This document shows, one piece after another, positions 24,605 through 44,781 of a stretch of 64,000 nt of DNA. Position 1 is the first letter of the stretch, and each line of letters starts with the position of its first letter. The DNA comes from Candidatus Moraniibacteriota bacterium (GTDB lineage Bacteria; Patescibacteriota; Minisyncoccia; Moranbacterales; GCA-2747515), in assembly GCA_040772365.1 (NCBI GenBank), contig JAXGYI010000007.1, forward strand, positions 5,752 through 69,751. The letters are read 5' to 3'. Below the pieces are notes generated by a model, which was not told the origin of the DNA, ran no database searches, and saw nothing but the letters and a program-made list of their open reading frames with translations. A program made the translations under genes and the position numbers.

Positions 24605-24638
24605 AAAAAATCATACGCCAGAGACAGACAGTGCCGCC

Positions 24639-24887: not shown

Positions 24888-24913
24888 CTCACCGTACTAC
24901 GGCATTATGATTC

Positions 24914-26065: not shown

Positions 26066-26112
26066 TATAATCACGGCATACACTATCCATAGTTGCGGTG
26101 TGTACATTTTTT

Positions 26113-27982: not shown

Positions 27983-28134
27983 AAACTATATAATGATGCT
28001 ATTTCTTTATAACCATGTTACCATACTACTGTTCACAATACCATCATACCATACACATATAACAGCCCTAGGGTGTAGGACTTTTTTTGTCACCCACTTT
28101 GAAAAAAAGCCATTTCCCTCTACAATAGTAGTAT

Positions 28135-28737
28135 ATGCAGATTATCACCATTTCCGGTCTGGACGGTTCGGGAAAATCTACACAGGCACGATTGATGCAG
28201 CACTGCCTCCGTCGCCACGGCGCGCACGTGCGCTATTTCAACGCGACGCAGTTTTCCATCGCGCGCGTTCTCACCACCGGGCAAAAACGTAGTGCCGACG
28301 GCAAAACCCGCGACGTCACACAGGCGACGCCGTTTGCCATTTGGTTGCGAACAGTGGCACTTTTTGTAGACGTAGTGCGTTTTCGCATCTGGATCTCGTG
28401 GCTTGGCAGGATGCACGGTGTCACACACATCATCTCCGACCGCTACTTCTACGACAGTATTGTCAACATCGCCTACCTCTCCAAACAAACCTACATGCCG
28501 TGGTTTCGGTCGCTTATTGTGCCACCGACTTATGCTTTTCTTTTATCCGTTCCACCCGATACCATCATGACACGTAGCACTCCACCGGCGCAAGGCACGG
28601 ACTACCTCATCCACAAAGACATCCTCTACCGCGACTATGCGCCCACGTTTACTCTACGCCGTATTGATGGTAATCGTTCACAAGAAGTTATTGCGGCGGA
28701 TTTCTGCGCCATCATCACCTCTCACAAAACCCTATGA
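28135..28737 (+). CDS. tmk: Thymidylate kinase-like P-loop NMP kinase (divergent)
   Basis: ITISGLDGSGKST P-loop and ISDRYFYDS (a DRY motif) are present. The lid region is divergent. Confidence 0.5.
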   Translation: MQIITISGLDGSGKSTQARLMQHCLRRHGAHVRYFNATQFSIARVLTTGQKRSADGKTRDVTQATPFAIWLRTVALFVDVVRFRIWISWLGRMHGVTHIISDRYFYDSIVNIAYLSKQTYMPWFRSLIVPPTYAFLLSVPPDTIMTRSTPPAQGTDYLIHKDILYRDYAPTFTLRRIDGNRSQEVIAADFCAIITSHKTL

Positions 28738-30221: not shown

Positions 30222-30281
30222 AAACTGCGACAGGTATTTCTACCTGCCGCATATCACGTGTAGATCGTGATCGAGATCCGC

Positions 30282-31049
30282 TTACCGAATCGTAAACGTC
30301 ACATGCACTCTGGTTACAAGATTATTCTCACCTGTAGGAATCACTGCTGCTGCACTTTCTTTTACTTCATCCATCGCACGCATACCGGCGGCATAGAGTG
30401 GTCGCGGCACATCGCCACTGCGATCTTCGTTAAAACTCACGACGTTGCCCAGTTGCACATCCAAATCCTTAGCAATCTCCTTGGCCTTACGTCGCGCATC
30501 GGCAATAGCATCGGTACGCAACTGTTCACGTACAGCATCTTCATCATCCACAAAAAAGGTAAGCTGAGATACATCATCCACACCCGCACTATTCACAAGA
30601 TCTAGAACTGCCGACACTGTATCTAGATCGCGAATGGTAATTTCCACGCGCTGTGAAACCCGATAACCATCAAAACGCTGTGCATTGTCTGTATAAGTGT
30701 ATTCTGGTGACAGTGTATAAGAGATCGTTTTAACATCCTTCTTCTCCACACCTGTTTTTTCCAGTGCGTCTACAAGGTTTTGCATACGCTCATTAACTGA
30801 CTGCGTCGCAACCGTCGTGCTGCGATTTTTTGCCGTTACACCAAATGATACCTTCGCCGTATCCGGCACAACAAACGCCTCTGCCATACCATCCACAGTA
30901 ATCACCTGGTCTGCCGTCATCGTATTAGTGTGCACAGTAATCTCGCGATTGACAAAAACCCCGTACACCACAAGTACAAATGTGGCGATAATGCATCCAT
31001 AGACAATCATATGTACTACTCCATGGTCACGTTGCTGTTGTTCGTTCAT
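30282..31049 (-). CDS. SIMPL/DUF541-domain protein (membrane-anchored periplasmic protein)
   Basis: An N-terminal TM segment followed by VITVDGMAEAFVVPDTAKVSFGVTAKNRSTTVATQSVNERMQNLVDAL, which matches the SIMPL pattern. Confidence 0.55.
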   Translation of the reverse strand: MNEQQQRDHGVVHMIVYGCIIATFVLVVYGVFVNREITVHTNTMTADQVITVDGMAEAFVVPDTAKVSFGVTAKNRSTTVATQSVNERMQNLVDALEKTGVEKKDVKTISYTLSPEYTYTDNAQRFDGYRVSQRVEITIRDLDTVSAVLDLVNSAGVDDVSQLTFFVDDEDAVREQLRTDAIADARRKAKEIAKDLDVQLGNVVSFNEDRSGDVPRPLYAAGMRAMDEVKESAAAVIPTGENNLVTRVHVTFTIR

Positions 31050-31078
31050 AGTGTTCTATGTTAAAAATACTACACAAT

Positions 31079-32086
31079 TTAATTTATTATGCGCTTGCGA
31101 TCACTCGTAGTGCGTCGTCGACGCACAGCACGCCACAGACCACGTGCAGCTATAACGACAAGCCACAGTAACACGCCGTACATCACTAGCATCGGCACGA
31201 TACGCACGATCAGTATAATGAGAAGGTTGACAAAGCCCTGCATATCTACAAAAAGTCCATGCACACCTTCTTTCACAATTTGTAGCGGGCGCCACTGGTC
31301 CGATAGTGTCACCGTGCGATCTTCACTCAGCGTAACAGTAATGCGCGCGTAATCTGTTTGTGATGCCATAAACGTCAATTGCGCCTGCATCCGTTCAATA
31401 TCTCCTCGCACGCGCTGCACCTGACGCGTCACTTCCAAAATATCAGAAATTTTTTTCGCCTGATCCAGTACCTTAATATACGCCTGCTCCTCTGCCATGG
31501 CATTGGCAATACGTTTCTCCAAATCACGATATGCGAGTGTCACATCTTCACTGCCCGTAGATTCCTGTGTAACAACCGTTGCCACTTTTTTGATCGCCGT
31601 AAATGCATCCGCGAATTGTGCTACAGGCACATGTACTGTTACTGTACCGCTCTTCACATCATCTGTGCGACGCGTAAAAGAAGTTGTAACGACACTGCCG
31701 CCATATTGTTCGGCGATAGCTGTAATGGCCGCCACAGCGTTATCCACTCTGTCCACACGCATGTATATCTGCCCATCTTTGATTTCTTTTTTGTCCTGCG
31801 CCACTTCCGCATTGTTCACATCTGCATCCATTGATACGTCCATGGTCGCATCAATACTATTCATCGGCATCTCACGAGATGCCATGCCCGCACCTTTTGT
31901 AGACGATTGCAGTGCCAAAGATGTCTTGCCATGTGTATCGTATATATCCTCACTCCATGGTGCCACATGTCCATGATACGCACGCAACCCAATTACTACT
32001 ATGACGAACAGCACGATGACGCCTGCAATACCTGCAAGAACTATCCCGGCAATTATTTTTCCCATATGCCTCTTTTCTGCGTGCAT
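31079..32086 (-). CDS. Hypothetical membrane protein (N-terminal TM, coiled-coil middle, C-terminal TM; DUF4349-like)
   Basis: The architecture is visible in the translation. Family assignment is tentative. Confidence 0.35.
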   Translation of the reverse strand: MHAEKRHMGKIIAGIVLAGIAGVIVLFVIVVIGLRAYHGHVAPWSEDIYDTHGKTSLALQSSTKGAGMASREMPMNSIDATMDVSMDADVNNAEVAQDKKEIKDGQIYMRVDRVDNAVAAITAIAEQYGGSVVTTSFTRRTDDVKSGTVTVHVPVAQFADAFTAIKKVATVVTQESTGSEDVTLAYRDLEKRIANAMAEEQAYIKVLDQAKKISDILEVTRQVQRVRGDIERMQAQLTFMASQTDYARITVTLSEDRTVTLSDQWRPLQIVKEGVHGLFVDMQGFVNLLIILIVRIVPMLVMYGVLLWLVVIAARGLWRAVRRRRTTSDRKRIIN

Positions 32087-32174
32087 ATTTTTATGTTATC
32101 TACTTACCTTTATGCTGTAAGTATACCACAGAAAGCTATATACTGTGAAAAGCTATGCCACCTCATCACCATCG

Positions 32175-33959
32175 TCACTCCTCTGTCCACACCTGTCGCC
32201 AGAGATAGCGAATCTGCACACCGCTGGCGAAAACAGGATCGCGTTGTGACGGTGCAAAGATTTTTTCTTCCTCTGTGACAGCCTCTGGCTTAGCCCGTAA
32301 GTAATATGCTGTTAACGTGCCGAATGCCTTTCGCTCTACAATATCCAGACCCGGCATAAATTTCGCTAAAAATGCCTCCTGATCGGATTGTGCACGAACT
32401 ACAACAAAATAGTTCCCCTTACGGTACAGAGGTGAAAGATCCAGGGCAATCGGATCACGTGGAATACCTCGTACATCAATACGCTCCCACAGTGCGCGCT
32501 TATACTCTGGCTGCGCATGCACAAACACTGCTTCACCATTACTCATATGTATCTCCTCTATCCAATCTACAATCGCCATCATTTGTCCGAATGTGACGCG
32601 TACACGCTCTTTGAGCACGCGATCACGGTGCATAATCTCCGCAGTTGGATCAGTAGCTGCTGCACGCAACTCGCCAAAATACCGCAACACAAAAAACATA
32701 TTACACGCAATACACAGAAGCACGATTGTCACACCAAGAGTATATCCGCCGCGCGGTAACCACAGACGTACACCACTCACCACAAATCCTACGACAAGAA
32801 TTGCCACCGGCGCCACAAGCAAGAAAAATCGCGGCGCAATGTCATAGGCAAGCGGCGTGAAGAAGAGAAAAACCACACCGACCCATAATACAATCATGCG
32901 CAGAAAATCACGCTCCTGATTAAGCGATGTATAACGATAGAATTGCCACAGCGCACTCAATGCCGCGACAAGACACCCTAAAGCAATCATGCCGCGTCCA
33001 AAACCATGGCGACAGTCGTAGTCACAGCGAATATCCATACCGGAAAGCGTTGGCATACCTGCAAGTTGATCCCCTGTAGCAATCATCCAGTAGTATTGCA
33101 CGTGCAGACCTGTATTTGTCACGATCTTTTCAATTACTGTATGCTTTGCCGTGTCTTTTCCTTCGCCTTCTTCATCGCTGTCATCCACACCGCCCCGCGC
33201 AAGCAGTGTCTGCATAAATGCCTGCGCATTATCACCACCTGTTTTGATATCATTCACAATTAGTGGTGTATTTAATATGACAAAAACACCTATAGCACCA
33301 ACCCAATAGCGCCAATTGATCCTCGTCCGCGTCCACATGAGGTAGAGCACCGCCACAAGTGGCATCGTAACAAATGCCACAAAATGCATACTCATAAGAA
33401 ATGCTAAGGCTGCTGCCGCCACAACCAGCCACCAACCCCGCCGTGCGTCTTCTGTGTCACTTGTGCGCAACAATGCATAAATAAAAAGGAGTGTAAACGG
33501 CGTCAAGAGGTTCGGATTCCATCCAAAGCGACTATAGGATATCAGAAAAAGTGACGTAGCAAAAATCGTACTAAGCCCCAACGATAGACGTGGACCAAAG
33601 AACCGTCGCGACAATGCAAAAAACAGCCCAATCGCGGCAATATTGAGAAGTGCAATGATCATAACACTGCCAGCCGGTGTATTACCAAAGATCAGTGCAC
33701 TAACATACTCCACATAGTACAACCACGGCCCGAGCCGTAAAAATGATCCCGCAGCACGAGGACCCTGCAACGGCAATTCTCCTGGACCATATTCCATTGC
33801 TGCATACACTACCCGAAAATCCCGTGCCTGATCCAGCTGATAGTGCATCCAATCTTCAAAGTGATACAGGCGCAAGAATGCACCAACAGCAATAACCACA
33901 CTTAGTGCATAGATCCAGCGATGACGCAGGATGTGTTCTTTCATAATACATCGATCCAT
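32175..33959 (-). CDS. GT-C fold membrane glycosyltransferase (PMT/ArnT-like, GT39/GT83-type), paralog A1
   Basis: 594 aa, polytopic. The first-loop acidic motif is FLRLYHFEDWMHYQLDQARD. There is strong N-terminal similarity to ORF 40108..41718 (FLRL..F.D...NDQ.RD ... GP.AGG.F.LGP..YY ... SRF.WNPN). Confidence 0.6.
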   Translation of the reverse strand: MDRCIMKEHILRHRWIYALSVVIAVGAFLRLYHFEDWMHYQLDQARDFRVVYAAMEYGPGELPLQGPRAAGSFLRLGPWLYYVEYVSALIFGNTPAGSVMIIALLNIAAIGLFFALSRRFFGPRLSLGLSTIFATSLFLISYSRFGWNPNLLTPFTLLFIYALLRTSDTEDARRGWWLVVAAAALAFLMSMHFVAFVTMPLVAVLYLMWTRTRINWRYWVGAIGVFVILNTPLIVNDIKTGGDNAQAFMQTLLARGGVDDSDEEGEGKDTAKHTVIEKIVTNTGLHVQYYWMIATGDQLAGMPTLSGMDIRCDYDCRHGFGRGMIALGCLVAALSALWQFYRYTSLNQERDFLRMIVLWVGVVFLFFTPLAYDIAPRFFLLVAPVAILVVGFVVSGVRLWLPRGGYTLGVTIVLLCIACNMFFVLRYFGELRAAATDPTAEIMHRDRVLKERVRVTFGQMMAIVDWIEEIHMSNGEAVFVHAQPEYKRALWERIDVRGIPRDPIALDLSPLYRKGNYFVVVRAQSDQEAFLAKFMPGLDIVERKAFGTLTAYYLRAKPEAVTEEEKIFAPSQRDPVFASGVQIRYLWRQVWTEE

Positions 33960-34003
33960 AAAACCTTCTTATAACGGATGAAAACGTGCCACGATAATAC
34001 TAC

Positions 34004-35605
34004 CTATTTAGTGCCCCCATGTAAGTCCCAGTGATACACCGTCACCTTACCACGCACGAGATCAGAGTCCGTGACCGCTGTGGCATGCTGTGCCAGATAA
34101 GCACGTGCCGCCTTTTCCACAAACACATTATCATTGTCAGCCAGCACTACCCAGCCGCGCGGATGCTGTACCATGATCTCCTGCACATACACCGCCGTGA
34201 TCTTTTTGACTTTACCCTCTTTTGCCAACAGCGACTCGTCGCGCTCCGAACCGAAATCAAATACCGGAATGCCCATGCCGCGCCAATAGAAGTTGCGAAA
34301 ATTACGCGTGATCATCACATCGCCGGGCTTCGCATTGTCGCGCACATAGGTGAATACTTTGCGATAGTTTGCGCGATCTGCCGTCATAGTGATGTGGTAG
34401 GTGGTATTTTTCTGAAAGAAGTAGCCGTAGTACGGTAGCAGCAGTGCGGCAACAAGTAGCGTACCAATAAATGCTGCACGCCTACGCGTTGCCCGCGCCA
34501 TCCACCGCGCCGCCGCCACAACACCCGCCGCTGCCACCATCATGGCAAGCGGTTGTAGGAAAAAGATATATTGCGCACCCACATTGCGATCCCACAGAAA
34601 AATCGCTGCTGTAAGTCCCACGATAAATGTACTCACCAACCACGCACCTGCAGGCGCTACATCACGAAACCGCACCAGAGCAACGCTCCCGCCAACCAGC
34701 GCCGCCGCCGCAATCAACGGATGCCAATACGAACGCGCAAGATGTGCAAGGTATCCCCAGTGATCATCAAAAAATACCATACCACTCGCCAACTGTACCC
34801 ACACCGACGGAAGAAAAACGGCACACGCCACTGCACCAGCCGCACACACGCCAAGATACACAACATAGCGCCAGCGCATCAGTGGCGCGCGCGACACCAC
34901 CGCCATCCAGAAAAAATACCCTACAACCATCAATGCAAGATTGCCCGCCAGCGGATGAAGATGTAAGGCAAGTACCGCCATCACTACAACTACAATAGCA
35001 TACGCCCAATTGACATGCAGCGCTGCAGAAACCACACGGCGCAACGTCACACGGTCCGCGGGATGTATAGTAAGACGCGGCACATGCTCCACAAACCGAA
35101 ACGCACTCCACCACAACATCAAAAACACCGGCGCAAACATACTGTACATACGTACTGCGCGATTGATCTCAATTGCTGGTACAGACACTGCCCACAAGAA
35201 TGCCGCCACAACACCAATGGCACGCGAACGCAATAAACTTACCGTGACTCCATAGATTAAAACCGTCGTGATAATGCCCCACAGTGCACTTACCACGCGC
35301 GCCGTAGATTCGGCAAGCGGCAATACGCGATACATCTGTGCCACCTGCCACCGATACAGCCATGCGCGTTCATCACTCGCCTTGTTGTCGCGCACACTTG
35401 GTGCGTCGTGATTGAAGTCCCACGCCTGCCAAACACCTGTCTTGTAGTAACCATAGGTTGCATTCACGTCCAGAAATTCATCGGCATTGAGCGGGACATT
35501 GCCCAACTGCCATAGTCGCAAACCCGCCGCCAGCGCTACCACTACCACAAGAATCCACGTCACATCCCGCCGCGACCACGATCGTTCTAAAAAATTTTTG
35601 ATCAT
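34004..35605 (-). CDS. GT-C fold membrane glycosyltransferase (ArnT/PMT_2-like)
   Basis: 533 aa, polytopic. First-loop RLWQLGNVPLNADEFLDVNATYGYY carries the canonical GT-C DE motif of polyprenyl-phosphate-sugar-dependent transferases. Confidence 0.6.
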   Translation of the reverse strand: MIKNFLERSWSRRDVTWILVVVVALAAGLRLWQLGNVPLNADEFLDVNATYGYYKTGVWQAWDFNHDAPSVRDNKASDERAWLYRWQVAQMYRVLPLAESTARVVSALWGIITTVLIYGVTVSLLRSRAIGVVAAFLWAVSVPAIEINRAVRMYSMFAPVFLMLWWSAFRFVEHVPRLTIHPADRVTLRRVVSAALHVNWAYAIVVVVMAVLALHLHPLAGNLALMVVGYFFWMAVVSRAPLMRWRYVVYLGVCAAGAVACAVFLPSVWVQLASGMVFFDDHWGYLAHLARSYWHPLIAAAALVGGSVALVRFRDVAPAGAWLVSTFIVGLTAAIFLWDRNVGAQYIFFLQPLAMMVAAAGVVAAARWMARATRRRAAFIGTLLVAALLLPYYGYFFQKNTTYHITMTADRANYRKVFTYVRDNAKPGDVMITRNFRNFYWRGMGIPVFDFGSERDESLLAKEGKVKKITAVYVQEIMVQHPRGWVVLADNDNVFVEKAARAYLAQHATAVTDSDLVRGKVTVYHWDLHGGTK

Positions 35606-35886
35606 ACTGTCTTAGTCACTGGTAATTAAGATTTAAAAAAATTACGCCTTCTCTTAATTATAAACAACTATTGATTTTTTGGCAGATTGACAATATTTTT
35701 AATATATGCTGTAATCTATAATTTATAATGTGGAACTAGCCATCTACGCCAATCAGACATGTAGTCTGTGCATACGTATTGTGTCATGAAAATGATGAGA
35801 AAATATCGCCCCTGTTTTTTTGTGATACGCACTCGCAAAGTAAGAATCAAACAAAGATTGAAAAAATGCCCACTGCCTAGTATTCT

Positions 35887-35915
35887 TTTACATTATATCC
35901 ATTTTTCGCTATACT
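35887..35915 (+). promoter_or_regulatory. Sigma70-like promoter TTTACA-N17-TATACT, 7 nt upstream of the ATG of ORF 35922 (candidate leaderless mRNA)
   Basis: -35 at 35887-35892, -10 at 35910-35915, start codon at 35922. There is no SD. The divergent intergenic region is AT-rich. Confidence 0.45.
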
Positions 35916-35921
35916 GAAGCC

Positions 35922-38201
35922 ATGCATACATCTCCGGACGACAAAAAACCTGCACTACCACACCTGATGCGTACGCGCACCTTTGTGGCGACAATGCTGT
36001 GCGCAACCATCTGTGCCCTTCTCTTTATTGTCCAAAAAACCGACGCCTTGGACCACATGCGCCTTTTGGCGTCCGCCACGCCACTATATGGCATATTTCT
36101 GGTACTCTTTGGATGGGCACTGTGGTGGGCGTGGCGTCACAGCACCAAATACATAGACCGCGCACTACTGATTGCTGGTATCTTCTTACCAGCATCACTA
36201 CTCATCACCCTTGCACCTTTTTTTGCCACTACACATATTACCGCCACCATCACGGCACTTACGGGATTTCATATTTGCATCTATGGCATCCTCGCCATCT
36301 CCTACTACATACGTACTACACAATCAAACGATTGGCAAAAACCCGTCACTACACGCATTGCCCTGTGGCAGTGGGCGCTTTTAGGAGCTGTGATGATCAT
36401 CTACAGCTGGTTTGCCTTTCATCATCTCGGCAATGCGTTTTATGTGGATGAAAAGCTCTGGGTCTATGAACGCATTGAAAACTATTGGGACAATCTCCGT
36501 GAGCGCGATTGGCTTAATACGCGTCCTAGTGACAAGCCCGGTATTACCACCGCCCTTGTCACTGGTCCCGGACTCCTCTTCCACGATCCCAGCGATTTCA
36601 AAAAAGGCAAGCTACACAAAGAGCTTTTGCCGGATATGTTTTTTGCCCTTCGCGCACCACAGGTTATCGCCATTCTCCTGATGATCATCGCTGCATTCTT
36701 CCTCACACGCCACATCATCGGCACACGCACAGCGCTGATGTATAGTATTTTCCTCACACTGTCTCCACTTTTACTCGGCATCTCGCGCATCATCAATCCA
36801 GATGCACTCTTATGGATTTTCTTTATTCTCGGATTCCTGTGGATCATACGCTATCTGCAACACGAAAGACCCTCCGCGATCATTACCGCCGGAGTTTTCG
36901 TGGGACTCGCACTGTTGACAAAGTACATTGCCAACATCTTCATTCTTTTTTTCCTCCTCATTCTTTTTATAGACCTTGCATTGCGTGACCATGACAATAC
37001 TGATGCCGCATTACGCACACAGCGTTTACGAAAACGCGCCATCCACGCTGCTGCAATGGTGTGGATCGCACTCAGTGTTTTCTATGCACTCTATCCTGGC
37101 GCATGGGTGAAACACGATCGAATGCTCCTTGCTACCATTCACTCCGAAGCATTCCTCTCCACATGGAAATTTTTTGCTATCATCGTCGCCTTTTTTGTTG
37201 CTGATCTTTGTTTGTGGCATGCGCGTATCACGCGTGCCTTACTCACAGCTGTATACCGCACACGCACATGGCTTGCACGTGGCGTCTATGGTGTCTTTGG
37301 TATTGCCGTCATCATCGTTTTTTTTAATGTTCTCACAGATATGTCGCTCTATAATTTTACCGCCATTATTGAGTCACCAAAATCGTCTTACACTTCAACG
37401 TCACCGATTGCTTTTTTCCTCGCATCTTTCTATCCTCTCCTCTTTGGCGTCACCCCACTTGTACTCATCGGCGCGCTCATTGCCTATGCACGCCGTGCCT
37501 ATCGCCCACAGTGGCACATCACTGACCGCATCGTATTGTACGGCGCGCTCTTCATCCTCATCTACTATACTGCTTCACTCATGAACCATGTTGCACCGAT
37601 TATCCGCTACCAAATTATCATCTACCCACTCTTCATTCTCACTGCTGCCATCGGCTGGAACGACATTCTACGTGCACGACACCTACAGCGTACAGCCGCA
37701 ATAACGATATTCATCGTATTCCTCTGCATCGGCAGCTTGCAACTTGCAACGATTGCGCCATTTTACTTTTCCTATAACAGCCCACTCCTGCCTCAACAGT
37801 TCATTATTAATACCAAAGACATGGGCGACGGTAACTACGAAATTGCACAATGGCTCAACGCACGCCCAGCTGCTGCAGATATGGTTGTATGGACTGATAA
37901 GGCCGGTGTCTGCCAATTTTTCATCGGGACATGCATTACAATGACGCGCGGTGACGCTCTCTTGACCTACGCACCACGTATTGACTACTACATTGTCTCC
38001 CAAAACCGACGTGGCTTTTTCCAGCGCACGGCTGCCGCATACCGTGCCGCAGATCCCACTTATCCCATCCACCTCGACAGACTCTACGACCCCGAGCTCC
38101 CCACAGTATATACACTCCACCCAAGCGGACGGCAAGAAAACTTCATGCGTATCATTGACAGCAATGCTGTCTCCATTACATCCAACAATCATATCCATTA
38201 A
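35922..38201 (+). CDS. GT-C fold membrane glycosyltransferase, paralog B1 (759 aa)
   Basis: Polytopic. First-loop motif FHHLGNAFYVDEKLWVYERIENYWDNLRERDWLNTRPSDKPGITTALVTG is paralogous to ORF 38214. Confidence 0.6.
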   Translation: MHTSPDDKKPALPHLMRTRTFVATMLCATICALLFIVQKTDALDHMRLLASATPLYGIFLVLFGWALWWAWRHSTKYIDRALLIAGIFLPASLLITLAPFFATTHITATITALTGFHICIYGILAISYYIRTTQSNDWQKPVTTRIALWQWALLGAVMIIYSWFAFHHLGNAFYVDEKLWVYERIENYWDNLRERDWLNTRPSDKPGITTALVTGPGLLFHDPSDFKKGKLHKELLPDMFFALRAPQVIAILLMIIAAFFLTRHIIGTRTALMYSIFLTLSPLLLGISRIINPDALLWIFFILGFLWIIRYLQHERPSAIITAGVFVGLALLTKYIANIFILFFLLILFIDLALRDHDNTDAALRTQRLRKRAIHAAAMVWIALSVFYALYPGAWVKHDRMLLATIHSEAFLSTWKFFAIIVAFFVADLCLWHARITRALLTAVYRTRTWLARGVYGVFGIAVIIVFFNVLTDMSLYNFTAIIESPKSSYTSTSPIAFFLASFYPLLFGVTPLVLIGALIAYARRAYRPQWHITDRIVLYGALFILIYYTASLMNHVAPIIRYQIIIYPLFILTAAIGWNDILRARHLQRTAAITIFIVFLCIGSLQLATIAPFYFSYNSPLLPQQFIINTKDMGDGNYEIAQWLNARPAAADMVVWTDKAGVCQFFIGTCITMTRGDALLTYAPRIDYYIVSQNRRGFFQRTAAAYRAADPTYPIHLDRLYDPELPTVYTLHPSGRQENFMRIIDSNAVSITSNNHIH

Positions 38202-38213
38202 CACTACAGCCCT

Positions 38214-40124
38214 ATGCCTCTCTTCACACGTACAAATGTCCCATCACTCATCGGTATCACTTGTGCCGTAATAATATTTGGTATAGCCGGATTCTTCCAT
38301 CTTGGACAATTTGAAACTGCCGACGAGCATCTATGGAAATATGATCGTGTTCCACAATACTGGCAGGCACTTGCAGCCCGTGATTGGGCGAAAACGTACA
38401 TCAACGACAAGCCTGGTGTTACCGTGGCACTATTTTCCGGTATTGGCTTACTATATGAACCCAACCCAAACGCCACACAATTCGCACCACACCCACACAG
38501 CACATCCGACGATGCGCCATCGTTCAAAAAATACGACACAATCAAATCGGAAGCTGTCAATGTCGCATTTCGTGCCCCCATCATTATTCTCGGAATGCTC
38601 ACCATCATTGGGATCTTCCTCCTGTTGCGCATTGCCTTTGACACACGCGTTGCAGCGCTTGCTGCGCTTCTCATCGGCACCAACCCTATCCTCATCGGCA
38701 TGTCACAGATCATCAATCCGGACGCATTTTTTTGGATGTTTGGCGCATTAGGTATTGCCGCCTATTTGGCGCTAGTGCGCACTAGCGCCACACGCTATGT
38801 GCTATTGACTGGTATTTTCACAGGATTTGCCCTGCTCTCCAAATACACGTCATTCACCCTCTTTGTATTTTACATCCTCATCAGCATCAGTGCCCTCCTT
38901 TTTGACAAACCGCTTAAAAAAACAACTATTGCGACATACGTCACGACATTCACGATCCGGCTTTCTGCTATTGCGGCTATTGCCTTTAGCACATTCATCA
39001 TCTTTCTTCCCGCGTCTATTGCAAGACCGGAAATCATTCTGCGTGGCATTGGACAGTTTTTACCAGAAGGAAGAGCAGTGCCAGTAGTCCTTGCTCTTAT
39101 GGCAGTAATTATTGGCGCATGGTACATACTCACACGCTATGGCGAACGCATATTACACACTCTACGTACCTATGCCATGCACAGTGCCGTTGTTGTAAGC
39201 ATGCTCTTCCTTGGCACAATTGGTTTCGCTCTGCTCAACACCTGGACCGGACAACGCATCATTCCATTTGACAATCTCCGTGGTGCCGTCTATGCCAATG
39301 AGCCAGCACGATTTAACTTCAAGCCCTACATTCACTCTACTGCAAAAAAAGAAAAGCGCGTTAAAGCCTACTTCACCAACGCTTACCCCCTCACGTTCTC
39401 CCTCACACCGATCATCTTTTTTTCTGCCATACTTGGCGGCGCGTGGTTCACACTACATCGACGTCACGCTAATCAGCGCATTCGGATATTCTTTGTCACC
39501 CTTGCCACATTCACGCTCATCTATCTCCTCCTTACTGTGAAGGCAAAGGTGATTATTAATGTGCGCTATACCATTCTCCTCTATCCACTTTTTGCCATCC
39601 TTGCGGCACTAGTCATCGATCACCTCGTCACACGCTATAGTGCAAGAATACACCATGCTACATCATGGACCCTTGCCATCCTCCTACTCATTGGTGCTGG
39701 CACGCTCTGGCACATTGCGCCATTCTACTTTAGCTACGCCACAAATCTCTTGCCACGCGCATTTTCCATTCATGACTCGTGGGGGCATGGTGGTTATGAA
39801 GCAGCGCAGTACCTCAACAACCTCCCCAATGCACAAGATCTCATCATCTACTCCAACAGCAGCGCTCCCTGTCGCTTCTTTGTTGGCACGTGCCTCACAA
39901 GCCGTAAAATTGACCTTGCTGTCGTTACGCCGGATTACTTTGTCATGAACAAGCGTGATATCCTTAAAGAGCGCAATCGCATCATCCTCCTCAACAATCC
40001 CGAGCCAGAAAAAGACGCCAACTACTATATTGATAACCTCTCAACCAAAGCCATCTGGCGCCTAGACATCCTCAATCGACCAACAAACTTCGTTTCCATT
40101 ATTCCTTATGAGCGTCCCCACTAA
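38214..40124 (+). CDS. GT-C fold membrane glycosyltransferase, paralog B2 (636 aa)
   Basis: FFHLGQFETADEHLWKYDRVPQYWQALAARDWAKTYINDKPGVTVALFSG, which is paralogous to ORF 35922. The two genes are in tandem, 12 nt apart. Confidence 0.6.
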   Translation: MPLFTRTNVPSLIGITCAVIIFGIAGFFHLGQFETADEHLWKYDRVPQYWQALAARDWAKTYINDKPGVTVALFSGIGLLYEPNPNATQFAPHPHSTSDDAPSFKKYDTIKSEAVNVAFRAPIIILGMLTIIGIFLLLRIAFDTRVAALAALLIGTNPILIGMSQIINPDAFFWMFGALGIAAYLALVRTSATRYVLLTGIFTGFALLSKYTSFTLFVFYILISISALLFDKPLKKTTIATYVTTFTIRLSAIAAIAFSTFIIFLPASIARPEIILRGIGQFLPEGRAVPVVLALMAVIIGAWYILTRYGERILHTLRTYAMHSAVVVSMLFLGTIGFALLNTWTGQRIIPFDNLRGAVYANEPARFNFKPYIHSTAKKEKRVKAYFTNAYPLTFSLTPIIFFSAILGGAWFTLHRRHANQRIRIFFVTLATFTLIYLLLTVKAKVIINVRYTILLYPLFAILAALVIDHLVTRYSARIHHATSWTLAILLLIGAGTLWHIAPFYFSYATNLLPRAFSIHDSWGHGGYEAAQYLNNLPNAQDLIIYSNSSAPCRFFVGTCLTSRKIDLAVVTPDYFVMNKRDILKERNRIILLNNPEPEKDANYYIDNLSTKAIWRLDILNRPTNFVSIIPYERPH

Positions 40125-41718
40125 TACACCTACAACATCACCACGCTTCCGTGCACAGTCACTATTTGTACTGGCGCTACTTGCTGTAATTGTTTGTGGA
40201 TCCTTCCTACGTCTTGACGATTTTCACGATCGTATACGCTTCAATAACGATCAAGTACGCGACACCGGTATCGTGATAGACATGCTGACAACGGGCACTA
40301 TGCCCCTCCTGGGTCCAAAGGCTGGCGGCACAACGTTTCAGCTCGGCCCCGCCTTCTACTACATCCTTGCTTTTTCCGGTGCCGTCTTTGGCGCCACACC
40401 GGAAGGCATTGCGTTCATCGTCCCACTTCTCTCCATTGCGACACTTCCACTCCTCTTTCTCTTTCTGCGTCGCTGCTTTGCTACGCGCATCGCACTACCA
40501 CTCACGCTCCTCGCCGCTACATCGTTTTTTCTCATTAAATACAGCCGCTTTGTGTGGAATCCCAATGTGATTCCCTTTTTCCTCCTCGCATTCCTTCTGA
40601 CGCTTCTGCGTACCATGGACCTCCCCGCTACAAAGCACACGTCGCTGTGGTGGTGGATCCTCCTCGGCGTCGTCACCGGCATCAGTATGCAGTTGCACAC
40701 CACACTCCTCATCATCATGCCACTTACCATCCTCATCATGCATATCGCCCGTCGCTTTTTACACGCCCAGCCCCTTCCCATTGCGCGACTTCTCTTGACC
40801 TTTGCCATCATTGTACTCCTCTTGTCTCCCATGATCATTTTTGACGTACGTAACAATGGTGCCAACAGCGCTGCATTTTTTGCTGGATCCGCCAAAAAAA
40901 CATCCCTCGGATCTACCGTCAACAATGCCATTCATGTTGCACAATTCTTTGGACAAGGCAGTATCTATGTCCTCACTGGCACGGAACCCACACGTGACTG
41001 GACGGCACCGCGCAAACTCATTGCTCACCCATTTCAACTTCTACTCGCTGGATGTGGCATCATGCTATGCACCGTGGGCACCATTGTCACATTCTTCGCC
41101 ATGCGTCACAGCGGCAATACCCGACGCACACATGCGCTCGCCGCCACCCTCTGCATCAGTGCCTTGCACATCCTCATCCTCTTCCCCATCGGCGATACCC
41201 TGCAAACACGCTTTTTCCTTACGCTCTTCTTTGTCCCATTTGTGTGGCTGGGACTGTTCGCCGAACACCTCATTCTTCGCATCCGCGGAACCGTATCTAC
41301 GCGCATCATCTATAGCACACTCGCTATTGCATACCTCGCACTCATTGCTGGAAACCTCTCCACCTACCGTACTGCATATGCCTTTGATCCAAAAACAAAA
41401 AATGCTAGTCTCTACGGTGGTATTAGTCTCGGCGAACTACACGGTATCGTTGATGTCATAACGCAAAACACGAAAACGAACACTCCCGCCTATCTTCTCC
41501 CACACGCCTATGGACGCTCCGTGCGCTTTATTGCCACACATCGCGGTGATGTACGCGTGGAAACTGCCGATGCGGAAACCCTCCCTTCCGGCACAATAGC
41601 ATTTTTCCTCTCCGATAAACCGGATGCCCGCTTATCGGACACTCTTGCAGAAGCGTTCACAGAAAAACACCACGACACCGTAAAACGGTGGCACGTATTT
41701 ACACTTGAAAAGCGCTAG
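40108..41718 (+). CDS. GT-C fold membrane glycosyltransferase, paralog A2 (536 aa)
   Basis: FLRLDDFHDRIRFNNDQVRDTGIV...GPKAGGTTFQLGPAFYY...SRFVWNPN. A close paralog of ORF 32175. Overlaps the upstream gene by 17 nt. Confidence 0.6.
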   Translation: MSVPTNTPTTSPRFRAQSLFVLALLAVIVCGSFLRLDDFHDRIRFNNDQVRDTGIVIDMLTTGTMPLLGPKAGGTTFQLGPAFYYILAFSGAVFGATPEGIAFIVPLLSIATLPLLFLFLRRCFATRIALPLTLLAATSFFLIKYSRFVWNPNVIPFFLLAFLLTLLRTMDLPATKHTSLWWWILLGVVTGISMQLHTTLLIIMPLTILIMHIARRFLHAQPLPIARLLLTFAIIVLLLSPMIIFDVRNNGANSAAFFAGSAKKTSLGSTVNNAIHVAQFFGQGSIYVLTGTEPTRDWTAPRKLIAHPFQLLLAGCGIMLCTVGTIVTFFAMRHSGNTRRTHALAATLCISALHILILFPIGDTLQTRFFLTLFFVPFVWLGLFAEHLILRIRGTVSTRIIYSTLAIAYLALIAGNLSTYRTAYAFDPKTKNASLYGGISLGELHGIVDVITQNTKTNTPAYLLPHAYGRSVRFIATHRGDVRVETADAETLPSGTIAFFLSDKPDARLSDTLAEAFTEKHHDTVKRWHVFTLEKR

Positions 41719-42458
41719 TGCGTGCCGTCGCTACGTCGCCTGTGACGATATGCTAACCGCGCATATGGGCGCGGCTGTACTACCTCGCACCAATGCCGGT
41801 ACTGTTGCACAAGACCCCATAAACCAAGTCCGTGCGAATGATAAACGCTGAAGCGCGCATCGCACACAATTGTATAGCCGCGCTCTATCCAGTGACGCGC
41901 CCACGCACGATCCTCGCCACCACCAGCATACGCTTCATCAATTGGATACTGCTCCCATAGATCTCGTCGAATCAGCGCATTGGTAAATCCCAAAACACCC
42001 ATACCAGCGCGATGCACATAGCGAACGCGCCCGCGCGCAATCTGTCGGCGCCCTCTATATTCATTAAACAAGAATTTTTCCCATATGCCAGCATCCTGAT
42101 GCGCCCACACATTGCCATACACACCGGCAATGCTTTGATGCGTAAAATGCGCAATGCCATCAGCAAGCCATGTTGCAGATATTGGTATGCTGTGTCCGCT
42201 TAAAATAAGGAAATACGTTGTCGCTCGCGCCGCACGACACCCGACGTTGATGGCATGCGGATACGTGAATGATTCTGGCGCAATGTGCACAATGCGTGCG
42301 CCATGCACCCGCGCAATCTCCAGCGTGGCATCTGTGGAGCCCGAGTCCACTACAAGCACCTCAAAATCGCGATCCGTCTGTTGCGCCAACATCTCCATCA
42401 CGTGCGGCAATTTCTGCGCTTCATTTTTTGTGCGAATGATGATGCTTGTACGAGCCAT
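41715..42458 (-). CDS. GT2 family glycosyltransferase (soluble GT-A)
   Basis: N-terminal SIIIRTKNEAQKLPHVMEMLAQQTDRDFEVLVVDSGSTDAT, which is typical of GT2. No C-terminal TM region. Confidence 0.65.
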   Translation of the reverse strand: MARTSIIIRTKNEAQKLPHVMEMLAQQTDRDFEVLVVDSGSTDATLEIARVHGARIVHIAPESFTYPHAINVGCRAARATTYFLILSGHSIPISATWLADGIAHFTHQSIAGVYGNVWAHQDAGIWEKFLFNEYRGRRQIARGRVRYVHRAGMGVLGFTNALIRRDLWEQYPIDEAYAGGGEDRAWARHWIERGYTIVCDARFSVYHSHGLGLWGLVQQYRHWCEVVQPRPYARLAYRHRRRSDGTH

Positions 42459-42467
42459 AACACTTCT

Positions 42468-43073
42468 TTACTTCACCACCTCCTCAAACACCTCTGCCGT
42501 TGTGCGCTTCTTGAACACGCTCATGATAGTGATGATGAGAATCGCCACACCAAACGCCACCCACCCGGCATAAGTAATGTACTTCTCAATTTGCACATAC
42601 ATGTATCCAAAAAAGTATCCCAATACCACAAGCGCACTACTCCACGCAATGCCTCCCAAAAAGGAAAACCACACAAAACGCCATAACGGCATTTTCACTA
42701 CACCGGCCGTCACAAATGCCGCCCAGCACAACCCCGTCGTCGCCTTGACCATGATAATTGTCTTGCCGCCGTGTTGTTCGAAAAATTTCTCCAAACGAAA
42801 GATGAGGAGGTGCGTCATGCCAATATACTTGCCCACCGTCGTCACAAACCGCATCCCCCACCGATAGCCCATGCCATACAGCACCACGTCGCCAATAATA
42901 TCGCCCGCAATGGACAGCACCAGCACTACCCACACATTCAGCATACCAATAGACGCCAAAAACGCGCCGATGAGTGTCACAATCGGCCCCTCAATGATCA
43001 TCAGCGGCAGCAATATCGCATAGCCGTATGTACTCACATACGTCGCAATAACTTGTTCCGTCATAAAACTCAA
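42468..43073 (-). CDS. DedA-family membrane protein (TVP38/TMEM64/SNARE-associated domain)
   Basis: DedA signature region GDIIGDVVLYGMGYRWG and the expected TM topology. Confidence 0.65.
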   Translation of the reverse strand: MSFMTEQVIATYVSTYGYAILLPLMIIEGPIVTLIGAFLASIGMLNVWVVLVLSIAGDIIGDVVLYGMGYRWGMRFVTTVGKYIGMTHLLIFRLEKFFEQHGGKTIIMVKATTGLCWAAFVTAGVVKMPLWRFVWFSFLGGIAWSSALVVLGYFFGYMYVQIEKYITYAGWVAFGVAILIITIMSVFKKRTTAEVFEEVVK

Positions 43074-43418
43074 TCAATTACTGCCTCTACAGCAAGTATA
43101 GAGAATAACACACTCTTGTGCAAGAACTCTACAATAAAAAACATCCCTATCTGCGCACAGATAGGGGTTTTGCTTATACATTCGTTTACTTCCGGTGCTC
43201 ACAACATTATATTTCCCCCATCCCTTTGGAGCGGGTTTACATATGATAGTGTGAGTGCCGCAATAAATATATGTGTCATCTTTAGAAGCAGTGGTAACTG
43301 CTGTTCTTCCGGCAACTGTGATGGTTTTATGCAGAATAATGCGCGGTATCTTGCCATTTTCATCTGGTGTATAATAATTTTTTGTAATATCAAACCAGTC
43401 CGTTGTGCGGATACTCAC
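43074..43418 (-). CDS. Hypothetical Cys-rich small protein
   Basis: 114-aa ORF. No family recognised. Confidence 0.3.
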   Translation of the reverse strand: MSIRTTDWFDITKNYYTPDENGKIPRIILHKTITVAGRTAVTTASKDDTYIYCGTHTIICKPAPKGWGKYNVVSTGSKRMYKQNPYLCADRDVFYCRVLAQECVILYTCCRGSN

Positions 43419-43635: not shown

Positions 43636-43668
43636 AAAACACCGCATGTAACGTGCGGTGTTTTTTTG
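43636..43668. terminator. Bidirectional rho-independent terminator at the end of the ribosomal protein operon, immediately after rplO
   Basis: AAAACACCGCA-tgtaacg-TGCGGTGTTTTTTT. The A-run and T-run on either side make it usable in both directions. Confidence 0.65.
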
Positions 43669-44106: not shown

Positions 44107-44781
44107 TTACGCTTTACGAGTTGATGTGGTGCGCTTAGTTGTCACCTTCTTTACTGATGATTTTTTAGTAGATACTTTTTTTGCTGGTGCTTTTTTCTTT
44201 GACTCTGATGCACTTACAGCTTTTTTTGTAACTTTTTTTGCAGCCATCTTCTTCCCCTTGACTGCCTGTGTACGCTGCGATTTCACTTCTTCTACGCCAT
44301 CGGCACTGTCCAATGTTTTGAGTGCCTCCACTGTTGCACGCGCCACATTGAGCTTATTGGAACAACCAAGTGATTTCGATACAACATCGCGAATGCCCAC
44401 AAGGTCCATCACCGCGCGAATTGCACCACCAGCGATCACACCACGCCCCTCTTTATTTGGTTTAAGAATCACGCGGGCACTTCCAAGTTTTGCAGACGTT
44501 TCATAAGGAATTGTCGTACCAGAGAGAGGGACGGTAATCATATTTTTTTTAGCATCTGCAGTCGCCTTCTGCATTGCTGTTGAAACATCAGCACCCTTTG
44601 CCACACCAACACCAACCTTGCCTTTGCGATTACCTACAACAACCGTTGCACGAAAGCGAAAACGACGACCGCCCTTCACCACACGCGTCACGCGCGCGAG
44701 GTCAAGCATCTGCGTATCAAATTCTGATTTTGGTCGGCGACCGGGTCTTCCTGATTTTTTGTGATCTTTCTTAAATGCCAT
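44107..44781 (-). CDS. rpsE: 30S ribosomal protein S5 with a C-terminal Lys/Ala-rich tail
   Basis: GGRRFRFRATVVVGN...VAKG...ILKPNKEGRGVIAGGAIRAVMDLVGIRD. Only 5 nt separate it from rplO, so there is no L30 gene. Confidence 0.9.
   Translation of the reverse strand: MAFKKDHKKSGRPGRRPKSEFDTQMLDLARVTRVVKGGRRFRFRATVVVGNRKGKVGVGVAKGADVSTAMQKATADAKKNMITVPLSGTTIPYETSAKLGSARVILKPNKEGRGVIAGGAIRAVMDLVGIRDVVSKSLGCSNKLNVARATVEALKTLDSADGVEEVKSQRTQAVKGKKMAAKKVTKKAVSASESKKKAPAKKVSTKKSSVKKVTTKRTTSTRKA

Follow-up and report, generated by a model that had tools for sequence, protein, structure and literature searches.

Six GT-C-type membrane proteins in a conserved gene cluster of Moranbacteria: a putative transmembrane glycosylation pathway

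Why does an ultra-small member of the Moranbacteria (Moraniibacteriota, CPR/Patescibacteria) carry five intact GT-C genes side by side and a sixth one nearby, and do they belong to one pathway? The genes lie in the window, by which we mean the whole 64,000 nt stretch of DNA that was analysed. An earlier note had read the array and its neighbours as a single system decorating the cell surface with several different sugars. A literature search on the array proteins found no publications.

Layout, identity and age of the array

The coordinates and lengths described before were confirmed by an ORF check. A (594 aa, 32175-33959) and B (533 aa, 34004-35605) are located on the minus strand, C (759 aa, 35922-38201), D (636 aa, 38214-40124) and E (536 aa, 40108-41718) on the plus strand. 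Both groups show operon-like packing: B and A are separated by 44 nt, C and D by 12 nt, and D and E overlap by 17 nt. The AT-rich divergent region between B-A and C-D-E (35606-35921) is a probable bidirectional promoter region. Sigma-70-like hexamers occur there on both strands (plus, 35887-35915; minus, 35685-35657). Their number is not above shuffled expectation, hence they point only weakly to promoters.

A short-read contig of the same species (L002) is 99.9% identical and gap-free, with ORFs identical to those of the window; in this comparison neither frameshifts nor pseudogenes are seen among A-E. A and D are fragmented in an NCBI MAG of the same species (L001), which shows 39 indels distributed over all genes including the essential ddl, 18 of them in homopolymers. 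As none of these is found in the short-read contig, we ascribe the fragmentation to assembly errors.

PMT_2 (PF13231) is matched above its gathering score by A (33.7 bits, cut-off 26.1), C (54.1 bits), D (51.7 bits) and E (37.2 bits), and PMT (PF02366) by C (37.4 bits) and D (43.2 bits). B is matched by no Pfam or NCBIfam model; it shows a high-confidence GT-C fold, and distant relatives of its family pass PMT_2. All five proteins are polytopic as proposed, with 8-17 candidate TM segments by crude hydropathy. C has an extra N-terminal extension of ~140 aa with four TM helices.

The acidic motif postulated for the first loop is found directly after the first core TM helix and is conserved in every family. 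In A, D43-Q-x-R-D47 is kept at no less than 90%, while R144-F-x-W-N-P and H192 are invariant (59 sequences). The invariant positions are D42-E43-F-L-D46 in B (38 sequences), D176-E177, D204-K-P-G, N292-P-D, K334-Y and R562-Y-Q in C (52 sequences), D37-E38, D65-K-P-G, N168-P-D, K210-Y and R451-Y in D, and D48-Q-x-R-D52, R147-F-x-W-N-P-N and H197 in E (10 sequences). Such (near-)invariance of acidic loop-1 residues together with Arg, Lys, Tyr, His and NPD positions, among 10-59 orthologs per family, argues for purifying selection on catalysis. Since the N-termini before TM1 are positively charged in A-E and the extra helices of C are even in number, loop 1 is placed outside in all five; by the positive-inside rule and by analogy, the acidic motifs are thus predicted to be oriented outward. 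The loop-1 residues can be equated with the known catalytic Asp/Glu by position, not by alignment, and none of the profiles for A/E, B, C/D or F reached a solved structure.

Two recently duplicated pairs had been suggested. The pairing of A with E and of C with D holds (BLASTP 1e-35 and 1e-65, hhalign 100%), but the duplications are ancient. Identity is 26% for A/E and 31% for C/D. In NJ trees each gene of the window groups with orthologs from many genomes, the A clade is separate from the E clade, and the C clade has a median length of 756 aa. As orthologs are closer than paralogs (37-42% identity within versus 26-29% between clades) and the clades separate cleanly, a recent origin does not apply. 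B has no paralog within the array and is remotely related to A/E (hhalign 96%). A-E fall into three groups whose sequences diverged long ago: A/E, C/D and B.

Conserved neighbourhood and donor supply

A relative of B is present in 172 species genomes. Synteny was counted in 49 loci, each 20 kb or longer. Three or more GT-Cs of the A-E classes lie within 10 kb either side of B in 44 of these loci. Array orthologs were found for A in 47, C in 41 and D in 27, and E is the best match in 6. The MOP flippase is located beside the array in 46 of the 49 loci, a GT4 is found in 33 and F in 25, the count for F being limited by the flanks. The conserved core consists of A, B, C (often D) and the MOP flippase, followed by the GT4, F and the GtrB-like GT2 at 16409. 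We regard the array as the core of a lineage-wide envelope-glycan cluster (~14.9-41.7 kb), which adds F, the GtrB-type GT2, the GT4, a UDP-sugar dehydrogenase and the MOP protein.

The GtrB/DPMS-type GT2 (318 aa, 16409-17365, plus strand; Glycos_transf_2 64.7 bits) sits 15 kb from the array. Two C-terminal TM helices (240-258 and 273-291) give it the GtrB topology that had been assumed. Over its full length it resembles the NCBIfam models AglJ (115 bits) and PpgS (77.5 bits) without reaching either cut-off, and its orthologs (52-63% identity) adjoin F in 11 flank-limited loci. Judged by its sequence it is a candidate polyprenyl-phosphate-sugar synthase that would supply the donor. Divergent from it lies an enzyme of the UDP-glucose/GDP-mannose dehydrogenase family (14909-16210, minus strand) with all three UDPG_MGDP_dh domains above cut-offs.

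F is a GT-C-fold membrane protein of ~669 aa (~18582-20591, plus strand) from the DUF6541/DUF1616 family; the ORF starting from TTG at 18000 is over-extended. This sixth GT-C had been overlooked before. It has an AglB-like C-terminal globular domain, and a motif and profile check gave neither a WWDxG motif nor an STT3 sequence signal. Downstream of F a cytoplasmic GT4 with GT-B fold is encoded (21397-22767, plus strand; Glyco_trans_1_4 and Glycos_transf_1 above cut-offs). The window thus has one GtrB-like synthase for six GT-Cs. The transfer of several different sugars finds no support here; it is simpler to assume a single donor that serves several acceptors or linkages.

Profile searches support the annotation of the flanking genes as MOP flippase, SIMPL, soluble GT2 and DedA/VTT. 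The MOP-superfamily protein (495 aa, 28734-30221, plus strand; Polysacc_synt 90.6 bits, MurJ 51 bits) ranks SpoVB before MurJ and WzxE in NCBIfam, all below cut-off, matches MurJ (2e-6) and WzxE (6e-3) in the PDB, and its gene shares 4 bp with the housekeeping gene tmk. It may be a glycan or lipid-sugar flippase; given the SpoVB/MurJ-type similarity, the MurJ match in the PDB and the tmk overlap, a lipid II flippase is equally consistent.

Membership of SIMPL, the soluble GT2 and DedA in the system was not borne out, as they are lineage-specific neighbours in 0-4 of the 49 loci. SIMPL (30282-31049, minus strand, 168.9 bits; 4/49) and DUF4349 (31079-32086, minus strand, 158.1 bits; 2/49) are exported proteins with a single-TM anchor, inserted between A and the MOP gene in this sub-lineage only. 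The soluble GT2 (247 aa, 41715-42458, minus strand, convergent with E; Glycos_transf_2 58.5 bits, no TM helix) adjoins the array only in a sister species of the same genus (L007) and in none of the 49 larger loci. The DedA/VTT-domain membrane protein (42468-43073, minus strand; VTT_dom 45.3 bits, cut-off 33.9) likely starts at the ATG at 43064, giving 198 aa as also called in L002. Its position beside the array is genus-specific (L007; 1/49). In NCBIfam it comes closest to UptA, although at 54.7 bits it remains far from the cut-off of 250, and it is a candidate polyprenyl-phosphate recycling flippase. A terminator-like hairpin (43143-43168) lies between DedA and the ribosomal operon.

Proposed pathway and known systems

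We consider it rather probable that the cluster encodes a multi-component transmembrane glycosylation pathway with six GT-Cs, of which A-E are intact and predicted to be catalytically competent. At the cytoplasmic face, the GtrB-type GT2 would charge polyprenyl phosphate with the sugar of a nucleotide sugar, and the lipid-linked sugar would be flipped by the MOP protein or by another flippase. Each GT-C, using its loop-1 acidic residues on the outer face, would deliver the sugar to its own extracytoplasmic acceptor or linkage position, possibly on a wall or membrane glycopolymer or on surface proteins. Recycling of the freed polyprenyl phosphate would follow, a step for which the DedA protein next to the array is a plausible candidate in this genus. 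That all enzymes act in one pathway is what we infer. Points against it are the single GtrB-like synthase at 15 kb from the array, the possible role of the MOP protein as lipid II flippase, and the fact that neither an initiating phosphoglycosyl transferase nor a polymerase, a ligase (LCP) or an obvious acceptor gene was recognised.

In the literature, such systems are defined as combining a GT-A linked to the membrane, a flippase of the GtrA or Wzx type and a GT-C that carries an acidic motif in an extracellular loop (PMC8035078; PMC11127046). Known three-component systems of monoderms are CsbB/GtcA/YfhO, GtlA/GtlB, CsdAB/CD/EF with CflA and GacI/J/K/L (PMC8035078). The Moranbacteria cluster resembles them by a GT-A anchored in the membrane through C-terminal TM helices (16409), by PMT_2-type or unassigned GT-Cs of 500-760 aa with the acidic motif in an extracellular loop, and by a Wzx/MOP-type flippase candidate. 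In contrast to their mostly one-to-one ratio of GT-A to GT-C, six GT-Cs face one GT-A in the window, which moreover contains no GtrA-type flippase; B and F come from families without functional annotation, and teichoic acids are not established in CPR bacteria. That several GT-Cs share one flippase or donor has a precedent in CflA of L. lactis (PMC8035078).

ArnT (GT83) and the Rhizobium GalA transferases RgtA/B/C/D (PMC4402001 for RgtA/B) are PMT_2-family GT-Cs as well, and there too several paralogs use one Und-P/Dod-P sugar from a GtrB/ArnC-like GT2. The UDP-sugar dehydrogenase gene beside the GT2 (14909/16409) is reminiscent of uronic-acid-derived donors whose supply depends on Ugd. However, they modify lipid A or the LPS core, and CPR bacteria are thought to lack LPS. 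No homologues of ArnA, ArnB or ArnD are found in the window, and the similarity of the GT2 at 16409 to ArnC is negligible (24.5 bits versus a cut-off of 529).

Factors of Und-P economy provide further parallels. The DedA gene next to the array in this genus recalls DedA/UptA (PMC11474028, PMC12893004), although the protein stays well short of the equivalog cut-off. Related genomes often encode an exported phosphodiesterase beside these GT-Cs or as a fusion with them. Being a membrane-anchored metallophosphoesterase it recalls carrier-lipid liberation by UpsH (PMC11898649), but it belongs to the CpdA/SpdA type and, unlike the cytoplasm-facing UpsH, is predicted to be oriented to the outside. 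Three different GT-C families of the cluster have this same phosphodiesterase beside them or fused to them, a recurrence that speaks for a common chemistry.

Alternative explanations

It is possible, if only tentatively proposed, that the GT-Cs act in turn, using one or two polyprenyl-phosphate sugars to build a single glycopolymer or lipoglycan outside the cytoplasm. GT4 and GT2 enzymes would make a primer in the cytoplasm, to be flipped by the MOP protein, and F would carry out the last transfer, resembling the synthesis of mycobacterial lipomannan, LAM or arabinan or the lumenal ALG steps of the ER. The ratio of one synthase to six GT-Cs is in line with this, as are the contiguity of GT4, GT2, dehydrogenase, MOP and GT-C genes in typical loci (L059, L006) and the stable number and families of GT-Cs across the lineage. 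EmbA/B/C, AftA-D, PimE and MptA-C as well as ALG3/9/12 are likewise divergent GT-C paralogs that assemble or branch a glycan outside the cytoplasm from one lipid-linked donor, partially clustered in mycobacteria and corynebacteria (embCAB), and B and F are similar in fold to AftA, AftB, AftD, Emb, ALG9 and ALG12. On the other hand, a sequence relationship to these sets is not detectable, neither a UbiA-type DPPR synthase nor a DprE-like epimerase was found here, and the organism has a genome of ~1.3 Mb and no mycolate envelope. Moreover, the cluster showed no initiating phosphoglycosyl transferase, F has no STT3-like signature, and the linkage between the enzyme products is presumed.

We deem it doubtful that the GT-Cs serve unrelated pathways, with the MOP protein as lipid II flippase and the gene order simply conserved as is general in reduced genomes. 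The unrelated housekeeping genes tmk, rtcB and ddl lie scattered through this conserved block, and in genomes this small, conserved order alone does not prove shared function. The MOP gene with its tmk overlap and SpoVB/MurJ-type similarity fits this explanation, and so does the variation of DedA, soluble GT2, SIMPL and DUF4349 between lineages. It is opposed by the operon-like packing of C-D-E and of B-A, by the phosphodiesterase shared among three GT-C families and by the strong over-representation of glycan genes in the block: a 21-kb stretch of L059 contains three GT4, three GT2, a dehydrogenase, MOP and four GT-Cs.

Protein glycosylation, by which some or all GT-Cs and especially C and D would be PMT-like O-glycosyltransferases on pilins, S-layer or other exported proteins, appears unlikely. 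C and D pass PMT, and the six GT-Cs share with PMT (GT39) and the oligosaccharyltransferases (GT66 STT3/PglB/AglB) the GT-C_A fold, the loop-1 DE motif (B, C and D) and, in F, the globular domain known from AglB. The best PDB profile match of C/D is Pmt4, though non-significant, and the conserved Cys pairs of their C-terminal extracytoplasmic domains (C664/C671 and C553/C560) would fit substrate-binding domains. However, the PMT match covers part of the profile only, the profile search of the array proteins gave no match to PMT_4TMC or MIR, and the WWDxG motif and an STT3 profile match are missing. Characterised monoderm PMT_2-type enzymes mostly modify teichoic acids or polysaccharides (PMC8035078), and no acceptor protein accompanies the cluster from genome to genome.

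That some copies are non-catalytic subunits (PIG-U/GAB1-like), flippase-associated proteins (archaeal Agl23-like), transporters or pseudogenes is highly improbable and largely refuted: A, C and E are closest in NCBIfam to TIGR03663 (Agl23), yet well below cut-off, the loop-1 acidic and further polar residues are conserved in every family, Foldseek returns transporters only at E > 0.1 with TM-scores near 0.1, and the short-read contig is intact despite the fragmented A and D of L001.

Returning to the glycosylation pathway with six GT-Cs, the lineage-wide conservation of the core array fits an important role in surface biology. The lipid-carried sugars are most likely attached to the outer cell surface, an expected chemistry in a poorly known organism.

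Gene layout and intactness of the array

A six-frame ORF list returns the five large ORFs at the coordinates claimed by an earlier note made from the sequence alone. A (32175-33959, 594 aa) and B (34004-35605, 533 aa) are located on the minus strand, spaced by 44 nt. C (35922-38201, 759 aa), D (38214-40124, 636 aa) and E (40108-41718, 536 aa) are located on the plus strand, with a gap of 12 nt between C and D and an overlap of 17 nt between D and E. The B-A and C-D-E groups diverge from an AT-rich spacer of 316 nt. The GC content of the array (0.47-0.52) is the same as in the remainder of the window. The flanking annotations were borne out by Pfam, i.e. a MOP flippase-superfamily protein (28734), a SIMPL protein (30282), a soluble GT2 (41715) and a DedA/VTT protein (42468); a DUF4349 protein at 31079 is an additional neighbour.

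The array of a same-species NCBI MAG (L001; GCA_040769235.1, JAXGLK010000006.1), compared with window positions 24000-40307, is broken: A is in three pieces and D in two, and MOP, SIMPL and ddl are fragmented as well. However, every gene is hit by the 39 indels in these 16 kb; three of them fall in the essential ddl and eight in MOP, and 18 are located in homopolymers. Moreover, the short-read Logan contig L002 matches the window at 99.9% identity without gaps and has exactly the same ORFs. Hence the fragmentation is almost certainly an assembly artefact as judged from these alignments, and A and D are not to be regarded as pseudogenes. The array is intact.

Elsewhere in the window S5 (44107-44781) is directly followed by L15 (43679-44101) with no L30 gene between them. 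A missing L30 is a hallmark of CPR bacteria, so this fits a CPR genome. A terminator-like hairpin at 43636-43664 apparently closes the ribosomal protein operon; secY is missing downstream of it. GC skew is uniformly negative over the whole window (1-64000; -0.09 to -0.28 per 2-kb bin) and independent of gene strand, which indicates that the two strands differ markedly in composition and that neither an origin nor a terminus of replication lies in the window. An Rfam scan of the window detected three tRNAs alone and no rRNA. tRNA-Ile(GAT) and tRNA-Ala(TGC) are adjacent (60064-60244, minus strand), an arrangement typical of the rRNA spacer.

Fold, motifs and family membership of the six GT-C proteins

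A, C, D and E pass the Pfam gathering score of PMT_2, and C and D additionally that of PMT (PF02366), which is not matched by A, B and E. B has no match in Pfam or NCBIfam. A homologue search for B found 197 homologues at E ≤0.001 among 8000 scored candidates. The best 120 of the 197 are listed; among these, nearly all are unnamed, the few named ones belong to Candidatus Moranbacteria or Parcubacteria, and PF13231 or "GT39" appears as a label in a handful. Remoter relatives of B from a library of 1.84 billion proteins pass PMT_2, and a profile comparison by hhalign connects B with A and E at 96% probability. The structure of B was modelled using AlphaFold2 and a 38-member alignment, resulting in a confident model (pLDDT 92, pTM 0.91). 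The best 36 Foldseek matches of this model in the PDB are all GT-C enzymes, among them STT3, AglB, PglB, ArnT, ALG9/12, DPY19, AftB, Emb and Pmt4. Transporters appear at E >0.1 only and with TM-scores near 0.1, so that a transporter identity is rejected. Based on the predicted fold of B, its hhalign link, its PMT_2-passing relatives and the Pfam matches of the others, all five proteins are GT-C-type, as the earlier note had proposed. A polytopic N-terminal membrane module with GT-C fold, characteristic of GT-C_A, was found.

Orthologs for motif analysis were gathered from 80 genome loci and their alignments curated (10-59 orthologs per family). B exhibits an invariant D42-E43-F44-L45-D46 right after TM1 (n=38). 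In the C family (n=52) D176-E177, D204-K-P-G, N292-P-D, K334-Y and R562-Y-Q are all invariant, and the D family (n=18) shows a homologous, equally invariant set (D37-E38, D65-K-P-G, N168-P-D, K210-Y, R451-Y). D48-Q-x-R-D52, R147-F-x-W-N-P-N and H197 are invariant in the E family (n=10). The A family (n=59) has D43-Q-x-R-D47 at ≥90%, combined with an invariant R144-F-x-W-N-P and H192. The acidic motif claimed for loop 1 is thus kept in every family, as DE in B, C and D and as DQxRD in A and E. Each of A-E has a Lys/Arg-rich N-terminus ahead of TM1. C carries ~140 extra N-terminal residues (35922-36350) forming four additional TM helices, which are missing in its paralog D and retained throughout the C clade (median 756 aa vs 626 aa for D). 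According to the positive-inside rule, the Lys/Arg-rich N-termini and the even helix number of the C extension suggest that loop 1 faces outward in all five.

The sixth protein, F, is contained in an ORF at 18000 (863 aa) that is over-extended. In alignments with its orthologs (~660 aa) the match begins at residue 196, so the start of F is put near 18582 (18582-20591, plus strand). F matches DUF6541 and DUF1616; the literature found on DUF1616 states no function. F was placed in GT-C by fold search alone, and hhalign gave no link to A-E (below 8% probability). The GtrB-like GT2 (16409) and a GT4 (21397) flank F, an arrangement conserved in relatives.

Assignment to a more narrowly defined family was considered as well. 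Membership of A-E in GT39 (PMT) draws on PF02366, but this match is partial in C and D (profile positions 46-205 and 77-230 of 245) and absent in A, B and E, and neither the C-terminal PMT_4TMC domain nor MIR, which eukaryotic members carry, is matched by any of A-E at E up to 0.01; the domain make-up of GT39 is not seen. PMT_2 would also fit GT83 (ArnT), but the genes of the Arn pathway (ArnA/B/C/D/E/F), which has lipid A as acceptor, were not found, the ArnC model gives the GT2 at 16409 24.5 bits (cut-off 529), and ArnT in the PDB was not reached by the profiles. Membership of B or F in the oligosaccharyltransferases (GT66) is rejected, the resemblance being one of fold: WWDxG is absent from A-F (no WWD), the STT3 Pfam model matches neither A-E nor F family members, and Pfam, motif and profile comparisons gave no sequence-level link of F to STT3. 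Phmmer searches of the single A-E sequences against the PDB yielded nothing meaningful, and the family profiles (B, F, C/D, A/E) nothing significant (best Pmt4 at E 0.27, for C/D). Hence the catalytic residues are not mappable by alignment. GT-C transfer from polyprenyl-phosphate sugars is well-known chemistry, and by analogy the donor of A-F would be a polyprenyl-(pyro)phosphate-linked sugar.

Conservation of the cluster and age of the duplications

A genome scan with one genome per species revealed 172 genomes with a B relative, of which 80 loci were fetched. The gene counts refer to 49 loci with a length of ≥20 kb and cover 10 kb on either side of B. A (47/49), MOP (46/49), tmk (44/49), C (41/49), rtcB (38/49) and a GT4 (33/49) are frequent neighbours of B, followed by D (27/49), F (25/49) and the GtrB-like GT2 (11/49), the latter two counts being bounded by the 10-kb flank. 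E was found in 6, SIMPL in 4 and DUF4349 in 2 of the loci. At least three GT-Cs of the A-E classes are present in 44 of 49. Usually (E)-(D)-C diverges from A-B, and MOP-tmk-rtcB-GT4-F-(GT4)-GtrB comes next. As tmk, rtcB and ddl are interleaved in this conserved block, synteny alone is no proof of shared function. A promoter scan did not exceed shuffled expectation. The soluble GT2 and DedA had been proposed as parts of the system; they occur near B in none and one of the 49 loci, respectively, and as a pair adjoin E only in the sister species L007 (B 87% identical), which does not support their inclusion.

In a typical, fully annotated locus (L059) the region beyond C encodes a second GtrB-like GT2, a nucleotide-sugar dehydrogenase, a GT4 and an LPG_synthase_TM protein (PF03706, MprF-flippase-like). 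The latter is seen beyond the C/D/E side at L059:4815-5750, L005:966-1886 and L006:1-668. Of the 49 loci, 34 have a homologue close to the array; the window has none, its place being taken by the soluble GT2 and DedA. Many third-party MAG loci (TPA_asm; L007, L008, L013, L019, L026, L030 and ~25 more) are titled "uncultured Bdellovibrionales", "Micavibrio" or "Pseudobdellovibrionaceae". Their cluster (B, A, C, MOP, tmk, rtcB) is of the same Moranbacteria type, with similar identities, and their taxonomic labels look wrong.

The pairs A/E and C/D had been described as recently duplicated. This turned out to be wrong. A and E share 26% and C and D 31% identity; Moranbacteria orthologs are 32-56% identical to their window counterparts. 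In midpoint-rooted NJ trees the promoter-proximal C-type genes and the downstream D-type genes form two clean clades, and so do A and E, each clade consisting of one window gene and genes of many genomes. Mean identity is 37-42% inside clades and 26-29% between them. Judged from these trees and identities, both duplications are older than the radiation of the sampled lineage.

Phosphodiesterases are a recurrent companion of the array. Four close B orthologs from metagenomes carry a calcineurin-like phosphoesterase domain at the C-terminus, and homologous phosphodiesterases are found within 10 kb of B in 16 of 80 loci (e.g. L031:11549-12631, L048:11518-12606, L071:11457-12530, L074:3262-4203, L043:8951-9994, L023:4062-5126, L032:1297-3738, L056:73-2499 and L069:2843-5581). 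Some are stand-alone proteins with a single N-terminal signal-anchor helix, encoded directly before or after B or among C and D, with DxH/GD/GNH[DE] motifs intact in most. In other cases they form a C-terminal fusion with A/E-type (L032, L056, L039) or D-type GT-Cs (L069). They are predicted to be exported and signal-anchored, and nearest to CpdA/SpdA-type in NCBIfam, far below cut-off. The window homologue (1-828, plus strand) is cut by the 5' end of the window and located 31 kb from the array. In B. subtilis, Und-P is set free from Und-PP-linked precursors of wall polymers by UpsH, a metallophosphoesterase of the membrane (PMC11898649). Given this precedent and the recurrent adjacency and fusion, a coupling of GT-C transfer to phosphoester or carrier-lipid chemistry is plausible, though unproven.

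A putative transmembrane glycosylation pathway

The GT2 at 16409 consists of a cytoplasmic GT-A domain followed by TM helices 240-258 and 273-291. Over its full length it is similar to AglJ (115 bits) and PpgS (77.5 bits), neither score reaching the NCBIfam equivalog cut-off. Located 15 kb from the array and syntenic in relatives, it is a good candidate for a polyprenyl-phosphate-sugar synthase. A divergent UDP-sugar dehydrogenase gene adjoins it.

MOP is most similar to SpoVB (66.9 bits) and MurJ (48 bits) in NCBIfam, ahead of WzxE, and among PDB sequences MurJ (2e-6) precedes WzxE (6e-3). Its gene is overlapped by tmk (28135-28737) by 4 bp (ATGA, 28734-28737), an adjacency kept in 44 of 49 loci. 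This similarity and gene context suggest a housekeeping flippase, which may be that of lipid II. A GtrA-type flippase was not found in the window using Pfam on small ORFs, a scan for 3-TM ORFs and tblastn with the GtrA of L006. The LPG_synthase_TM protein could be an alternative lipid flippase of the pathway. DedA belongs to the DedA/VTT family by its domain score (VTT_dom 45.3, cut-off 33.9) and is a candidate for UptA-type function (54.7 bits, cut-off 250); DedA proteins have an established role in Und-P recycling (PMC11474028, PMC12893004). Genes for acceptor synthesis (LTA, WTA, SCWP or O-antigen polymer) were not recognised in the window.

[quoted passage not shown] Such a pathway is the best-supported reading of the cluster. 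The GtrB-like enzyme would charge polyprenyl phosphate with a sugar, the lipid-linked sugar would be flipped across the membrane, and the six GT-Cs would move it, outside the membrane, onto different acceptors or positions. In the described systems (PMC8035078) a membrane-linked GT-A makes the C55-P sugar; the GT2 at 16409, with its GT-A domain, two C-terminal TM helices and below-cut-off similarity, is a candidate for this part. These systems also have a dedicated GtrA- or Wzx-type flippase; no GtrA was found in the window, and the MOP protein, adjacent in 46 of 49 loci, is at least as SpoVB/MurJ-like as Wzx-like.

The earlier note assumed that several different sugars are attached. Since one lipid-sugar synthase candidate is present in the window (two in many relatives) for six GT-Cs, several acceptors or linkages served from one or two donors are more parsimonious. 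The same logic is seen in mycobacterial Emb/Aft/Mpt and the ER ALG enzymes, and Rhizobium RgtA/B is a further precedent (PMC4402001). Within this pathway the GT-Cs may decorate independent targets, may act sequentially on one polymer or may glycosylate proteins.

A more elaborate, ER-like route would lead in five steps to a surface glycan or glycoconjugate of Moranbacteria that would be essential and lineage-defining. Cytoplasmic GT4 and GT2 would prime a lipid-linked glycan, which MOP would flip. Four to six ancient GT-C paralogs would extend it outside from polyprenyl-phosphate sugars. F (DUF6541/DUF1616, with an AglB-like C-terminal domain) would transfer it to the final acceptor, and the exported phosphodiesterase, often GT-C-fused, would reclaim the scarce carrier lipid together with DedA. 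That all five steps hold jointly seems quite improbable to us. If true, F and B would be founders of new GT-C families and the GT-C-phosphodiesterase fusion a new coupling of transfer to carrier-lipid recycling.

Returning to the simpler transmembrane glycosylation pathway, the enzyme class is already known and the proposed mechanism conventional. The new points are that a very small genome has a six-enzyme set conserved lineage-wide, that B and F, two families lacking functional annotation, are assigned to the GT-C fold, and that fusions to a phosphodiesterase recur. Our literature search for GT-C, PMT_2 or glycosyltransferase arrays in CPR bacteria or Moranbacteria found nothing relevant. 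The envelope of CPR/Patescibacteria mediates attachment to hosts and is, to our knowledge, almost uncharacterised. A genome of ~1.3 Mb keeps six GT-Cs, and the five-gene array of 9.2 kb makes up ~0.7% of it. Taken together with the A-B-C-MOP core kept across the sampled loci, this points to a conserved and probably important extracytoplasmic glycosylation pathway in Moranbacteria, for which the catalytic motifs of each family, the candidate donor synthase, the families B and F and the recurrent phosphodiesterase fusion provide handles.
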